Positions 3,878-37,095 of a stretch of DNA of 41,126 bases are shown here, one piece after another. Each line of letters starts with the position of its first letter. Position 1 is the first letter of the stretch. The notes beneath the pieces are model-generated. The model had not been told where the DNA came from and did no database searches. It saw only the letters and a program-made list of their open reading frames with translations. The DNA comes from Basidioascus undulatus (lineage: Eukaryota): positions 1-41,126 of the forward strand of contig JTLS01000030.1 of assembly GCA_000826855.1 (NCBI GenBank), in the 5' to 3' direction. The translations under genes and the position numbers were made by a program.

Positions 3878-6800
3878 ATGCGGACATTCAAGAACCTCAC
3901 TCATACCGCCGCGGGCGCCCTCACGCTCGCCGCAGTCTCCGTTGCGGCCACGCCTCTGAGCCGTGACGATGGCGGCGAGACCTGGGCACTGAACGACCCG
4001 ACACTGGCTTCCTGCCCGGGCTACCGCGCTCAGAACGTCAAGACCTGGGACTCGGGCTTGGAGGCTACGCTCAAGCTTGCTGGGAAACCGTGCAATGTGT
4101 ATGGGACGGACTACGACAAGTTGCGGCTGACTGTTGAGTATGAGAAGGGTGCGTTTTATTTCGCTTGGATACAGATGTATACGACAGGTATTTCAAAACT
4201 GAACACGTTGTCCCGTTCTGGCAGAGAATCGACTCCACGTCAAGTTGACGGACGCAGACGGCTACGCGCATACCGTCCCGCCCGAGGTCTTCCTCCGCCC
4301 TCAGAACAGCAACACCCCTTCGGCCCAGGCCAAGCTCACCTTCAAGCATGTCGACGAGCCGTTCTCATTCTCGGTTCATCGAGGAGACGAGGTTATCTTC
4401 GACACCGCGGGGTCTCCGCTCGTCTTCGAAGACCAGTACATTCGTCTCGCCACGAACCTGCCGGACAACCCCAACATCTACGGCCTCGGTACGTTTGAAA
4501 TGCCTACGTTCATAGAAAAAAGGGAGACTGACTAGGTATTCCAGGCGAGCACAATGATCCCTTCCGTCTGCCTTCTTCCAACGTGCGTATCGATCCATTT
4601 GTAACACATTCTCCCTTCCGATAGCAAAAGTTAACCTGTTCTCATTTCAGTTCTCTCGCACTCTGTGGGCTCGCGATTCCCCTGGGATTCCTATGGGGAC
4701 GAATCTTGTGAGTGAATTTCTCTTCTCCCTGCAGTTTTCATTTTCTAACCCCCTGTCAATCCCCAGTACGGCACTCACCCCGTATACTACGAGCACCGGG
4801 TGACTGCTGAAGGTCCCCAGACTCACGGCGTATTCCTCTTGAACTCGAATGGTGGGGTTTGTATCGCTTCAGACTCCACAAAGATTCCTTATGCAACTAC
4901 GTCTCCGCAGGCATGGACGTTAAGTTAAACGACACGAACGGCCACACTCTCGAATACAACGCTCTGGGGGGTGTGGCAGTCCCTTTTATTCCGCTTTCTG
5001 AATTATATTGACACGCTGCGACTGCAGGCGAATTCGACTTCTACTTTTTTGCCGGACCGTCCCCTATTGAGGTGACGAAGCAGTATGCGGAAGTGGCTGG
5101 ACTGCCTGCGGGCGTTTCGTATTGGAACTTCGGTCTGCACCAGGTTCGTCTGAACGGTCGGAAGCATCATTCTTCGTGGTACTGACGCGCATCTTGTCAT
5201 CAGTGCCGCTGGGGCTACAGGTACGCTGAGTGTTAAGCGCCATATGGCAGACCGCAGTATTGACGGTGTTCTGTGCAGGGACTGGATCGAGCTTAGTGAA
5301 GTGGTTGCCAACTACTCCGCGGCTGGTATCCCTCTCGAGACAATGTGGGTGCGTAGAATGTTTCAGATTCCCCGTTAAGCAGCAACGACGTGCGGCTTTC
5401 TGACATATTGCGGCACAACAGGCCGACATTGACTACATGCACGAGTGAGTAACCCAGGCTTGTTCTTAGCAATGCAGGGCAGATGTAACGAAAATCTTTT
5501 ATTTCAGTCGCTGGATCATGACTCTCGACCAGGAACGCTTCCCGACCGACCGTATGCGCCAACTGGTTTCCAACCTTCACGATGCGAATCAACACTTCAT
5601 CGTCATGGTGAGACGCCCAATTACCGAGATCGATATTGTGTTTTGCTGATGCTCTTTGCGTTTTGTGCAGGTCGACCCGGCGGTCGTGCGTATCTCTAGG
5701 TCGCAAACTCTAGTGCTCTATTGACGCGCGAAGATCACTCTTCAGGCCGTCCAAGACTACCCCACGTACAACCGGGGCGTTGAGCAGGACATCTTCCTGA
5801 AAAATGCGGACGGCTCGGTTTACATGGGCGTGGTGTGGCCCGGCCCCACTGCCTGGCCTGACTGGTTCCACCCAGCGGCTGAGGATGTAAGTTCGTCCAT
5901 TCGAAGTGAGAGACTGTATTTTCGGACTGAACTCTTATTTCAACAGTACTGGATAAACGAGTTCAAGCTTTTCTTCAACCCTGAAGATGGTATTGACATT
6001 GATGCGCTCTGTAAGCCTGTCTTTTCAGCTCATACATCAGATTGCGTTCTCTTACCGATGATTTTTCGTAGGGATCGACATGAACGAGCCTGTAAATCTC
6101 TGGAAGAATCGCATCTTTCATTAGTTACTTATCCTCTTTCAATCTGCTCTAGGCAAACTTCCAGTCGTCGCCGGACTCGGACGTCTACGAGGTCGCCGAA
6201 GAGCAGCAGGTGCCGCCTGTGCCGCCGCCCGTTCGCGACCCGCCTCGCCCCATTCCTGGGTTCCCCGACACCTACTCGGACAAGTTCAAGAGGGATAGCA
6301 ACAACAGCCCTGGTAATGGCAACGGCAAGGGCCCTGGGAAGAACTACCTGTACCCCAAGTATGAAATTAACAACGCGCTCAAGGTTTGTCGCATCCACTC
6401 GCCTTGTCCTTGCAAGCCGAAAACTGACCGTCTGTGGACATTAGTCGGGCGATCCGGGCCGCATGCAGATCTCTAACTACACTGCGCGTACCGAGTAAGC
6501 CACCCGCTCATTGTGCGTTCTTCTCTCTGGACCTGACCCATCAACGCTTGTCGGCAGCATCGTGCATTACGGCGGGGAAGTCGAGTATGATGTTCACAAC
6601 ATCTACGGTGCGCTCAAACGGCATTACAGTTACGGGGCTACACAGGCTTAAAATTTCTTCTCTTCGGAAGGCGCGATGATGTCGACGGCCTCCCGAAACG
6701 CATTGCTTGCTCGTCGTCCGAACATCAAGCCCCTCATTCTTACTCGCTCCACTTTTAGCGGCTCAGGAAAACATGTCGGTGAGCTCTACCTTTTCAGTAC

Positions 6801-10452: not shown

Positions 10453-13370
<2,918 letters not shown>

Positions 13371-24562: not shown

Positions 24563-25362
24563 TCATACTTCTTTCTTTTCGTCTCCTCCCCGCCGCATTC
24601 GCTCTCTTTCGCTGTCCACCTCGGTCCATGCGGACAGCCGCACCTCCCCGCTCAGCGGTGCGCTGACCGTGTCGACGAGCTCCGAACTAAAGCGCCACCT
24701 ACTATACATCGAAGGTGCTGTCGACTTCGTACGTAAACTTTTCAGTCTGGACAGCGGTTGTACCCCCCAGCTGATGAATGCTTTGCTGTCCTTGCATTTA
24801 AACCCGTAGATCTTCGGCCAAACCCCCGCCGCCTAGTTCCACGACTGTGTCCTCGCCATCACCGCCTCGGGGCGCTCGTCGGACGACAGCGGTGTCTACG
24901 TGATCGACTCAAGCTCGATCGAACTCGCATCTTCCCCCGCGAGCGGAACCTCGGAAATGTCTAAAGCTATGATTTGGCAGCGAATACTCTTCCAAAGCAG
25001 AGCCAACCCGGAAGTAGAGGAATTGGAAGTCGTTGAAGAATCGCTTGATCCCAGTAAGATTTTTCTATATCAGCTTGCTTCGCCGGTTGGCGGGACGATA
25101 ATGCGCGTTGAATGGAGCGAATTGAGTGTCCAATCGAGGAGCTGCGGGTTCGTTTCCGTCGTGCGCGCCAGCTTCTCTGTCTGCCGCTGCAATTTGAGCG
25201 TGATTGAACCGTAGAGGAGAGGGGTTTCTGCTTCGTTGAACGAGCGCGAAACGAGGCAGAGTACGCCAGCGTGGGCGAGTCCCTCGGGTAAGAGAGCGGG
25301 TGCAACGGCACGCCGACTTCCTCAATGATGAGCCTGTGAATTTCGATGGGGAATTCCGGGAC
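24563..25362 (-). pseudogene. Degenerate F-box-like protein gene, paralogous to 856-1524
   Basis: PEFPIEIHRLIIEEV..PLHPLSYPRDSPTL / VLCLVSRSFNEAETPLLYGSITL, joined by a frameshift, with stops downstream. Confidence 0.55.
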
Positions 25363-26317
25363 AGTGATTCGGAGGGCGAAGCGGTGCGTGGTTCGAAAGG
25401 AAGCAGAGCAAGAGGCGTGGTCAGAAAGAGCTATAGCCGTGGTGCGGGGATGGTGATGCTGAGGTGGCAACGGGCTGGGCGGCGAACGCTCATCCTAGTC
25501 ACATGCCGGATGCCGGGTCAACTATACACGTATGGCCAGGCGACTTCGGTAGATAAAATCAGAGCCTTTAAACCAAAGTATTTTTGGTACACCTTAAGGA
25601 TAGCAACCTCAGACGTACCACGCCCGTACAAGTCGATGGGAGAGTAGAATAGGTTGCCAGCGGCTCTGCGGTTCTGGGTGTTGTTAGAGTGTTTACAGTC
25701 AAAATGTCTAGTAATCTACCAACCAGGACAATTCCCCTGCAGATCTAACTGGTTCTGCATCTTGATAGAGCACACAAACAGGGGAACGGCGATTCATGAA
25801 CAGGGCTGAAAGCATCGTCGTTGCCATTCCCCCCCTTCAGAGCTCCTACTCCCGGTCCCCCCAGCGTCCCATTGGATATTAGAAAAGTAAAAGACCAGCT
25901 GGATGACCTTCCAGCATATGATCTATGCATGCCATCATAGCTGGCTAGCTGCAGCGCTGCCCTCTTGCAATTGCAGAGCCGCCTGCGCTAGTCTCGCAGC
26001 TCGGCTCTCATTTCTAGCTTCTTGTGACTTGTGATTTGCGCCTGTACCACTCATTTCCAACTAACTTGCTGAGATACTCAGGCCCCGCTGTGAAGTGTTA
26101 GTCAGAAGTCGCGCCCGGCTCGCCGAGCACTCGCCATTCTTCGTTTCAAGCTCCACGCATAGGCACGTCCTCGTGGTCTGCGTCCTGTCTTGTCTTGTCC
26201 AGTCTCATTATGGTTATGGTACGTGATAGACTTGACAAAACCACGTGGCACGCTCGATTGCAGTCCTCACTGTGGCTAGATGAGCTCTGGTCTGTTATAC
26301 CACAATATTTTGGGCGG

Positions 26318-26323
26318 TATAAG
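26318..26323 (+). promoter_or_regulatory. Candidate upstream TATA-like element for the permuted tRNA
   Basis: TATAAG inside an AT-rich patch about 50-65 nt upstream of the tRNA 3' half. Function is inferred only. Confidence 0.3.
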
Positions 26324-26383
26324 GTTTATGTATTTCGTAGCGTAATTTACCGTCACCACAATCATAAGCGAGTGGGAGTCGAG

Positions 26384-26456
26384 ATCAGGGGGTTGCAGGT
26401 TCGATCCCTGCGTCGGTCACGGCCGGCTGGCTCAATGGTAGAGTATCTGACTACGA
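26384..26456 (+). tRNA. Circularly permuted tRNA-Arg(ACG): 3' half (nt 38-73) at 26384-26419, 1-nt spacer, 5' half (nt 1-37) at 26421-26456
   Basis: Acceptor stem GGCCGGC (26421-27)/GTCGGTC (26412-18) plus discriminator A. D arm GCTC-AATGGTA-GAGT. Anticodon stem TCTGA (26446-50)/TCAGG (26385-89) with loop CT-ACG-A|A. Variable loop GGGTT. T arm GCAGG-TTCGATC-CCTGC. All four stems pair fully (with G-U pairs) once the halves are swapped. Confidence 0.88.
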
Positions 26457-26457
26457 C

Positions 26458-26463
26458 TTTTTT
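26458..26463 (+). terminator. RNA polymerase III oligo-T terminator
   Basis: T6 run two nt after the tRNA 5'-half anticodon loop. A longer T-run follows at about 26507-26516. Confidence 0.65.
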
Positions 26464-26656
26464 GCTCCTTGTTGCTCTTGCATTTTCATGTCCGAGATGT
26501 TGTTCCTTTTTTTTTTCTTTTGATCCTGGCCGAACCTACGGTCAGAAGCGCGCCCACAGTGTTAAGCTGCTGCTCAAGCACCGTGCGACAATGGAACGTT
26601 AGATGAACAACCCCCAGGCGCAAGAAGTGCGACAAGAGAATCGCAACGCCGAACGC

Positions 26657-27859
26657 CTACAGCTCCAACCTAGCCCTCTTCGCCTCGGCCCCATCACCTC
26701 CGCCTAGAGCTTCCTCCTCGAGCTTCCTCCTCCCCCGCCCAACCTCGGGCGAAGCGCTGGGCGCCGGCGAGGGGAGGTGAGTGTGAGTTCCCCGTCCCAC
26801 TTCCGCCTCTCCCTCTCCGTCTCGCCGCCCATTTTCCTCCACCCCTGCGTCTGCATCCTCTTCCTCCTCATCCTCCCCACCAAACCGCCGCAGCACCCTC
26901 TCCCAAGCATCGACGACCTCCCTACGCCCCTCCTCCCTCGCCAGCCGCACCGCTTCCTCCCGCCCCGCCCGCTCCGCCTCCAGAGCGGCCACAGCGCCCC
27001 GCGCTGCCTCTGCGCTCGAGAGAGCCGCGGCGAGCTGGGCTTCTAGCTCGGCGATGCGCGTGCGCTGCGCGTGGGAGAGCGCGTCGAGCGCGGCGCGCGT
27101 GAATGGGTCGGAGTAGAGGTTCGCGAGCACGGTTAGGGCGGAGGGATCGACGTTGGCGGGAAGATCTGGAGGTGCGGTGATGAAACGTGAGGAGAAGCTG
27201 GGAGGAGCGCTGGGCGGGGGTGGCTGCTGAGGCTGGGCGAACTGCTGGTTGCTGGTGCTGCCCGCCTTGGGCACGGAAGATGAGGTCGATGCCTGGGTGT
27301 AGGATCGGGGATTTGATGAGTTTAAAATGAAGATGATTTCGTGCGCGAATGAAGCTCACCTCCAATCCGGTATCTTCCTGCGTCTGTACGGGCGCAGCAG
27401 GCCTCGTCCCCAGCGCCGGCCGGACCTGACGCCCGCATCCCACCCATCTCTCTCAGTCGCCACATTCCGACTCTCCGCCGCTAAGTATCACTCACGTTTA
27501 TCCTCGCATCAGTCCCCAGCATAGCGATGATCCGCATCCTCTCATCCGGGGGCGCCCACTGCCCGTCCAGCTTACCCGCACGCCTGATGGGCCTCCTCAG
27601 GCGTACGGAACTTCAGCCGCGCGTAGGGGAAGCCGTGGCTCGACAGCTTGACGTCAATGGAGAGCCTAGAAACCCGTGTGTGCCAGTATATAAAAGAAGA
27701 AAAGAGAAAGTAGGCCGCAGCGCACGGGACGGGTATGGACGAGTCCCCCGCCAGGAGGTCTTCGATGTGCTGGGTCGTGCAGGATGTGGAGATCTCCGTG
27801 AGGAACACCGTGCGCGCCGCTGCGGATGTCTTGGGGGCCGATTCTGTGCTCGTCGCCAT
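26657..27859 (-). CDS. RRM-like domain protein with C-terminal coiled-coil/low-complexity region; one apparent frameshift
   Basis: MATST...RTVFLTEISTSCTTQHIEDLL...|...FPYARLKFRTPEEAHQAC (RNP2/RNP1-like) continues as GKLDGQW only if one C of CCC at 27575-27577 is removed. The last exon is ORF 26657-27274. Confidence 0.5.
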
Positions 27860-28617
27860 GGTCTGTGTCGTCGTCGCTGTTTGTGGTGTTATGGAAGACG
27901 GTGGGAGTGGAGTGAGCGAGCTACTTTCCGAAGCACGCGTCCGGTTCGCGTCGCGTGGCAATGACCGCACGTCCGTGGAAGCCAACGCGGGTATTCCGTG
28001 GTTTTTTGTGGCTCTACAGCGTTTTGCAATTTTCAGCGACTCGCCACGACTTTGTGCGCATTGGAATCGCATACTGGATTACACTGGATAGTTCTCTAAA
28101 TATGCGAGACATATTAAATGGGGTGCTGCGTTCCTGTTGGGTAAGTAGTCAGCCCTCACTGCACGTCGTCCATTGACACTGACAGCCACACCGACGGCTC
28201 AGCGAGTCCATAAGAGTCGAGACGTCAAATTGAATCCAGCTTGCGTGCCTCGTTTGTTTCTTTGCTCCCCCTCTTGCGTCCTCCCTCCCATCACCTCGAC
28301 CATCCCGATGATGGCCTTCTTCCGCGGCACCCCATCCCCAGCGCCAGCGCCAGCGGTGGGGCCTCTCCTCCTTTTCCTCAACCTGACGTCGGCCCTCGCA
28401 CAACATGTACGGCTCAGCTCGAGCCCGCTACGCTGCTCAGCTTGCGGGATGGCGGGTGGTCCACCCAGCCTGCTCTTGACTACCAGTCGGATTTTCGTAT
28501 TCGGGCCCTTCGGCGCGGCCGCTCGGATTCATCGTCGCGTGCGACGTTTTGTTCAGATTCTCGACAAAAGGAGCGTCGATACTGAATCGTCCCCCGCTCC
28601 GTGGTGGATACTAGCAC

Positions 28618-34689: not shown

Positions 34690-37095
<2,406 letters not shown>

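Follow-up and report, generated by a model that had tools for sequence, protein, structure and literature searches.

A candidate family of circularly permuted tRNA-Arg(ACG) genes in a likely basidiomycete

The window analysed here, a stretch of 41,126 nucleotides, carries a tRNA-like element whose two halves lie in back-to-front order, along with exon stretches of several protein-coding genes (Table 1). Both halves lie on one strand, the 3' half immediately ahead of the 5' half, and the acceptor ends are joined by 1 nt, which is the arrangement of a type II permuted tRNA gene. The break falls in the anticodon loop, between positions 37 and 38, and CCA is not encoded. A run of six T (26458-26463) begins one base after A37.

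Table 1. Coordinates of the permuted element, its flanking features, neighbouring genes, and comparable units on metagenome contigs
Feature	Position	Strand	Content or basis
GH31 glycosidase exon stretch	5725-6441	+	Pfam
Aminodeoxychorismate synthase exon stretch	11180-12784	-	Pfam
TATA-like TAATTTA, candidate upstream promoter element	26343..26349	+	35-41 nt upstream of position 38; inferred only
Leader	26365..26383	+	Other genomic copies alike up to 26365-26371
Outer helix, 5' strand (predicted)	26374-26377	+	Pairing table
Central helix, 5' strand GUCG (predicted)	26378-26381	+	Pairing table
3-nt bulge with predicted cut before position 38	26382-26383 plus A38	+	Pairing table
tRNA 3' half, positions 38-73	26384..26419	+	36 nt; read from sequence, ARAGORN, 6-unit alignment
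Content of 3' half	26384-26419		Anticodon stem 3' strand, 5-nt variable loop, T arm, acceptor 3' strand, A73
B box	26398-26407	+	Within 3' half
Single-base intervening sequence C, between A73 and G1	26420	+	Crossed by core contigs 26390-26442 and 26390-26445
tRNA 5' half, positions 1-37	26421..26456	+	36 nt; read from sequence, ARAGORN, 6-unit alignment
Content of 5' half	26421-26456		Acceptor 5' strand, U8, D arm, anticodon stem 5' strand, loop CUACGA
A box	26428-26438	+	Within 5' half
Anticodon ACG	26453-26455	+	Within loop CUACGA
Trailer, C(+1) then T6	26457..26463	+	T run: likely RNA polymerase III terminator and outer-helix 3' strand
Neighbouring gene with two short introns, 27292-27358 and 27424-27493 (GT..AG)	26955-27888	-	X3 contig joins across both
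UDP-glucose pyrophosphorylase exon stretch	35720-36190	-	Pfam
Permuted units on metagenome contigs	L002:1-293, L005:581-827, L006:241-358		Metagenome eukaryotes

When the halves were joined in silico, 5' followed by 3', ARAGORN called a tRNA-Arg(acg). The stems of the re-ordered cloverleaf (7, 4, 5, and 5 bp) are fully paired, with G-U at 3 of the 21 pairs, and the anticodon loop has 7 nt. Reading the sequence directly, we found all of the conserved bases U8, A14, G18, G19, A21, U33, G53, U54, U55, C56, A58, and C61. A canonical cloverleaf with the conserved bases of a eukaryotic elongator tRNA is therefore restored on re-ordering, which is a second feature of the type II layout. The initial annotation of this DNA had described a circularly permuted gene that gives a complete cloverleaf with a 7-nt loop once its halves are swapped, broken at 37/38; the letters and coordinates it gave for the halves are present exactly, and both the ARAGORN call and the arrangement of the halves bear out the layout.

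The same annotation had expected standard scanners to miss the gene or call it a pseudogene. In the 41 kb of DNA as it stands, ARAGORN reported no tRNA genes, and no Rfam match in the window reached its gathering score. It had also reported no 5' half upstream and no 3' half downstream, in agreement with a blastn-short search of the 41 kb in which neither half had a second copy (self match, then a next best match of 13 nt). We also ran ARAGORN on self-concatenated 140-nt chunks of the window, and this locus alone was detected, in four overlapping chunks. The chunk scan fires at least once in 4 of 20 dinucleotide shuffles and is not specific by itself, so we place the weight on the perfect cloverleaf and on the multicopy data described below. 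A chance origin is excluded by the 21 paired positions and 12 invariant bases, taken together with the many further genomic copies. To look for other copies that had been translated as spurious ORFs, 34 aa of the open frame over the element were compared with 1.84 billion proteins; the single match was judged by eye to be an unrelated repeat protein, matched through its repeats.

The open stretches in the window are short, as is typical of an intron-rich eukaryote. Pfam families were found in 3 of the 43 ORFs of at least 150 aa, namely a GH31 piece, an aminodeoxychorismate synthase, and a UDP-glucose pyrophosphorylase. For the synthase stretch, the closest named matches are Pucciniomycotina yeasts and smuts at 35–38% identity. 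The best named matches of the pyrophosphorylase exon reach 83% identity and are spread across Basidiomycota. An Atlas look-up had pointed to Ascomycota, which the named matches do not bear out. A fungal host had been claimed for this DNA, and the named protein matches support it, pointing to Basidiomycota; to judge from these sequences, the host is most likely a basidiomycete. No Pfam family was found for the ORF pieces of the neighbouring gene downstream of the element. It contains gaps of 67 and 70 nt which, having GT..AG ends, fit fungal introns.

To describe the leader and trailer, we numbered outward from the junction, so that leader position -1 is 26383 and trailer position +1 is 26457. 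In the pairing table, three of the four pairs of a central helix can form (G(-3)-C32, U(-5)-A34, and G(-6)-C35), and the fourth is a C(-4)/U33 mismatch. On its two sides are 3-nt bulges with one predicted cut each, the first made of A, G, and A38 (AG|A38) and the second of G36, A37, and C(+1). The outer helix consists of A(-7)-U(+2) and then three G-U pairs with the T run. On this model, it is possible that leader and trailer form a relaxed bulge-helix-bulge (BHB) motif, with the order helix-bulge-helix-bulge-helix. A competing register pairs GUCG with C35-G36-A37-C(+1), giving a continuous helix and a 3x3 internal loop. The minimum-free-energy fold prefers this register, which would bury the cut after A37 in a helix. 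For the eukaryotic endonuclease, an anticodon-intron pair marks the 3' cut, and we take G(-3)-C32 to be the equivalent of that pair in this element.

The arrangement of promoter elements is unusual. Transcription by fungal RNA polymerase III depends on TFIIIC and on an A box that precedes the B box, and the host has TFIIIC-type promoters, unlike the algal type II systems. In the element, the order of the boxes is reversed, with the B box before the A box. Upstream, TAATTTA is the sole TATA-like candidate and is weak, and downstream the T6 run is clear. A second T-rich run (C, T10, C, TT) was observed at 26506-26519, 49 nt after the first, and could be a back-up terminator. We also noticed that the leader at 26365-26378 resembles an A box (consensus TRGCNNAGTGG) with one base missing; if real, this would put an A-like box upstream of the B box, which is the usual order. 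An alignment of the flanks gave no statistical support for this stretch as a decayed A box, a reading that is at most speculative.

Logan contigs of four sequencing runs (X1 to X4) were compared with positions 25000-28000 of the window. X1 and X2 are DNA assemblies of ~35 Mb; either may be the source of the window, and they are not independent of one another. In X1, a 53-nt contig covers 26390-26442 with no differences at a depth of 298, and a 56-nt contig covers 26390-26445 with one difference at a depth of 175, where the unique flanks have depths of 19.8 and 18.3. In X2, a 56-nt contig over 26390-26445 has a depth of 472.7, compared with 48.8 and 40.7 in the unique flanks. Across the contigs of the two DNA runs, the A73-C-G1 junction stands at ~15 and ~9 times single-copy depth and has many different flanks. 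The permuted element is probably present in about two dozen genomic copies or more, a figure estimated from these depth ratios (~15 plus ~9), as summed depth is not itself a copy number. If Logan contigs are built of 31-letter words, as we assume, the single difference between the two major core contigs would lie within 26415-26420, that is, in the acceptor 3' strand, A73, or the linker.

In both X1 and X2, approximately 80 contigs per run align to the element. Those of X1 fall into likeness classes of 40, 22, 14, and 5 contigs, running from at least 99% down to less than 90%. The diverged copies have 4–6 differences over 54–83 nt, for example 6 over 26381-26463. The unique contigs of X1 and X2 break off within the element, those of the left flank at 26394 and those of the right flank covering it only from 26437 onward. 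No Logan contig was found that spans the whole element plus both unique flanks. Unlike flanks begin before 26359, 26365 (four contigs), and 26371, and downstream behind 26461-26469. The 5' ends of the similarity are ragged, falling at 26359, 26365, 26371, 26372, and 26381. What the copies share is a unit of ~90–105 nt, made up of the permuted tRNA, 12–19 nt of leader, and the T run, without any extra body. In X4, a soil metagenome from a different study, a 151-nt record matches 26372-26461 with one difference and has unlike flanks, which indicates that the element occurs outside the source sample. The matching span in this record equals exactly the span of the proposed outer helix.

Misassembly and a decayed tandem tRNA pair had both been named in the initial annotation as ways in which the permuted gene could prove false. 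The first is contradicted by the junction words, which are multicopy in two DNA runs; a junction at multicopy depth with varied flanks is neither a misassembly nor a lone relic. As for the second, the flanks hold no vestige of the missing halves that rises above shuffled sequence (their scores are equalled or exceeded in 1463 of 2000 and 1036 of 2000 shuffles). A dispersed multicopy family makes a stronger case for a gene than for a relic. Many copies would also be expected of a tRNA-Arg(ICG) family in this host, given that, over three coding stretches of the window, 48 of the 87 codons for arginine are CGT, CGC, or CGA.

We then asked whether comparable units exist in environmental and prokaryotic sequence. 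A strict pattern with the T loop and D arm of this gene found no metagenome loci and none in prokaryote genomes. A relaxed pattern for permuted Arg(ACG), consisting of the T loop, 22–29 nt, the D arm, 7 nt, and CUACGA, identified six metagenome loci and none in viral contigs or prokaryote genomes. Three of the six (L001, L003, and L004; GC 0.21–0.23) turned out to be ordinary closely spaced tRNA pairs and were dropped. The other three are permuted tRNA-Arg(ACG) with the junction at 37/38, present as two units in L002, two in L005, and one in L006; no missing tRNA half was found near these units. They share with the fungal element the isotype, the junction, the loop CUACGA|A, and a T run after A37, and they differ from it in the D arm, variable loop, and acceptor stem, as well as in the linker, which has 6–7 nt in place of 1 nt. 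L002 and L005 hold tandem pairs (two of the three loci), and the GC of the three loci is 0.46–0.50. These units come from metagenome eukaryotes and carry no information on fungi.

An alignment of six units, the element and the five from the metagenome loci, was used to evaluate the pairing. In this alignment, 87.9% of cells pair, a value attained in none of 500 shuffles, and pairing falls to 36–48% when the partners are slid. The acceptor, T, and anticodon stems are paired in 100% of cells, and pair 2:71 takes four forms. Two of the leader pairs, G(-3)-C32 and A(-7)-U(+2), occur in all six units, and the leader reads G-U-N-G in five of them. The leader of this element thus obeys a local rule that also holds in independent permuted genes of its isotype. 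Among the metagenome units themselves, pair 2:71 was seen to covary (U:A, C:G, A:U).

Considering sequence and copies together, we think it slightly more likely than not that the element is one member of a functioning family of permuted tRNA-Arg(ACG) genes, with a presumed decoding role in a basidiomycete. It would be the first such family that we could find for fungi. To function, a back-to-front layout would require that its RNA be cut and re-joined. In the route we propose, an RNA polymerase III transcript would begin ~10–35 nt upstream of position 38, run through the leader, the 3' half, the C, the 5' half, and the trailer, and end in T6. In the folded RNA, the loop C72-A73-C-G1 would close the acceptor stem of a tRNA body, and the two ends would meet at the anticodon stem, where leader and trailer may form the relaxed BHB. 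The tRNA splicing endonuclease would cleave after A37 and before A38, and the fungal tRNA ligase would join A37 to A38, restoring the 7-nt loop CUACGAA. RNase P would open the acceptor end 5' of G1, acting on the circle or earlier on the linear RNA; were this cut to come first, base pairing would hold the two pieces together, and they would be joined in the manner of split tRNAs. The lone C after A73 could be trimmed or kept as C74, after which CCA would be completed. Deamination of A34 to inosine would allow the tRNA to read CGU, CGC, and CGA. The weak point of this route is transcription, with the boxes reversed and TAATTTA the only upstream candidate.

The remaining run may offer a view from the RNA side. 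None of the runs is on record as RNA; X3 shares its sample with X2 and carries the label 'DNA?'. One of its contigs joins across the 67- and 70-nt gaps in the neighbouring gene, where the gaps have CT..AC ends (GT..AG on the minus strand), and from this spliced contig X3 is inferred to hold RNA-derived sequence. A 93-nt contig of this run has 65 nt on 26377-26441 with one difference and 28 unlike letters upstream; it is another copy and may be read-through or DNA-derived. A further contig of 45 nt lies on 26412-26456 with no differences and ends exactly at A37. Both contigs include or abut A73-C-G1, as a precursor or a circle would, which is suggestive. A joint going back from 26456 to 26384, the 37|38 join, was found in the contigs of none of the runs, in a data type that cannot show absence, and neither a circular form nor a CCA end was seen among these contigs. 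The X3 contigs give no cover over 25505-26312, and this gap was not counted as evidence.

Two further observations weigh against a working gene. The divergence of 4–6 bases in some copies exceeds what is usual for one tRNA gene family, and the leader is identical over as many as 19 nt in some copies, which could mean a mobile unit. The element could alternatively be read as a dispersed tRNA-derived repeat, either resembling a SINE or having spread as retro-copies of a single RNA polymerase III transcript. Such a repeat would have originated once from a permuted or circularised tRNA-Arg and would not decode, with ordinary tRNA-Arg(ACG) genes located elsewhere. High copy number is what this explanation predicts, as are copies that stay alike beyond the tRNA body (the leader to 26365 and the trailer to 26466-26469) and copies that have diverged by 5–7%; the reversed box order makes normal tRNA-type transcription doubtful as well, a point that draws in part on general knowledge of TFIIIC. 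Yet the unit is just ~90–105 nt long and lacks a body unrelated to tRNA, its tail is a T run and not A-rich, and the 5' similarity ends raggedly in place of one sharp boundary. At the window copy, the reversed boxes, the want of a body beyond the tRNA and T run, and the absence of flanking direct repeats all depart from a tRNA-derived SINE, in which the A box comes before the B box and a body unrelated to tRNA, an A-rich or LINE-like tail, and target-site duplications are expected; a search around that copy found no direct repeats of the target-site duplication kind. Nor does a repeat need a perfect split anticodon stem, an exact break at 37/38, the G(-3)-C32 pair, or the full set of invariant bases. 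We consider this explanation unlikely, and the strongest of the alternatives to a working gene.

A different non-decoding role would be that of a tRNA mimic comparable to bacterial YrlA, in which the permuted order is kept, the closed acceptor is never opened, and the RNA binds a tRNA-handling or Ro60-like protein. The sole Rfam match at permissive settings is indeed YrlA (RF02553), over 26365-26471 with 39.2 bits and an E-value of 3e-07, a score that is far under the gathering score of 69 for this family. The YrlA model has a T arm, a closed acceptor-like stem, and a D arm in the same permuted order inside a long closing stem, and the minimum-free-energy fold of 26340-26480 likewise has a long closing stem. 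YrlA is bacterial, however, occurs in one or few copies compared with about two dozen here, and is without intact anticodon loop halves. The element keeps the exact letters of the tRNA-Arg anticodon loop on both sides of the break, which a mimic would not need. No TROVE/Ro60 protein was found by Pfam among the 43 ORFs of at least 150 aa, 3 of which have any family, in a search where intron-split genes could be missed. We judge a mimic of this kind improbable. A one-off relic, left by the decay of a tandem tRNA pair or by a local rearrangement, or else an artefact of assembly, would account for the single copy in the 41-kb window and for the failure of any Logan contig to span the element with both unique flanks, but it can hardly be credited when the junction contigs stand at 9–15 times single-copy depth with many flanks in two DNA runs, the flanks are no closer to the missing halves than shuffled sequence is, and the cloverleaf is undamaged at every base.

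Returning to a working family of permuted genes, we can ask how it compares with known cases. Earlier discussion has treated permuted tRNA genes as remnants of an ancient state or as curiosities of algae. The accessible text of a 2014 review lists one red alga, four green algae, one nucleomorph, and one archaeon as hosts (PMC3978253). Type II genes, with the junction at 37/38, are described there from Cyanidioschyzon merolae, Ostreococcus, Micromonas, and the Bigelowiella nucleomorph (Soma et al. 2007; Maruyama et al. 2010; reviewed in PMC3978253). Like the element, these algal and nucleomorph genes have the 3' half upstream on the same strand, the 37/38 junction, no encoded CCA, the potential for a BHB-like leader and trailer, and a T stretch after the 5' half; TATA-like elements are also reported upstream of the C. 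merolae genes (PMC3978253). The element is set apart by its fungal host, its isotype, its many dispersed copies, and an intervening sequence of 1 nt, in contrast to 5–74 nt in algae, 5 nt being the shortest eukaryotic linker given in the review (PMC3978253). Arg(ACG) does not appear in Table 1 of that review. The permuted tRNA-Tyr(GTA) of Thermofilum pendens is more distant, being archaeal, with its junction at 59/60, an encoded CCA, and an additional intron (Chan, Cozen and Lowe 2011, as cited in PMC3978253).

The claim that no fungal example was known agrees with these sources: fungi are not among the permuted-tRNA hosts in the accessible portions of the 2014 review (PMC3978253) or of a 2026 review (PMC13578239), and the corresponding text of the tRNAscan-SE 2.0 paper (PMC8450103) adds no fungus. 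A search of full-text literature found no fungal nuclear permuted tRNA among the matches listed, subscription journals and supplements lying outside its scope, and a 22-letter stretch of the gene had no match in full-text literature. A multicopy permuted tRNA with a one-base linker in a fungus would be the first of its kind in fungi.

A permuted gene family in a basidiomycete, if true, would mean that this layout can arise and spread under standard eukaryotic tRNA machinery. It would also mean that a major tRNA family can escape standard scanners, as ARAGORN and Rfam found nothing here, and that fungal genomes annotated without tRNA-Arg(ACG) merit re-inspection. A culturable fungus would become available for studying how RNA polymerase III, RNase P, the splicing endonuclease, and the ligase act on such genes. 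A bolder version, which we hold more tentatively and at somewhat under an even chance, is that all tRNA-Arg(ICG) in this basidiomycete, its main arginine decoder, is made from the approximately two dozen back-to-front genes. In that case, a fungal (opisthokont) endonuclease and ligase would routinely re-join or circularise pre-tRNA, RNase P would open a one-base acceptor loop, and RNA polymerase III would transcribe genes with the B box ahead of the A box. The layout would then have had an independent, recent origin outside algae and archaea and have spread through a whole gene family.

Finally, the DNA contigs point to one further feature near the locus. Extra contigs of X1 and X2 over 25268-25345 show 13 differences in 78 nt, including A>G at 25304 and 25310, which suggests that another short repeat lies ~1.1 kb upstream of the tRNA element.
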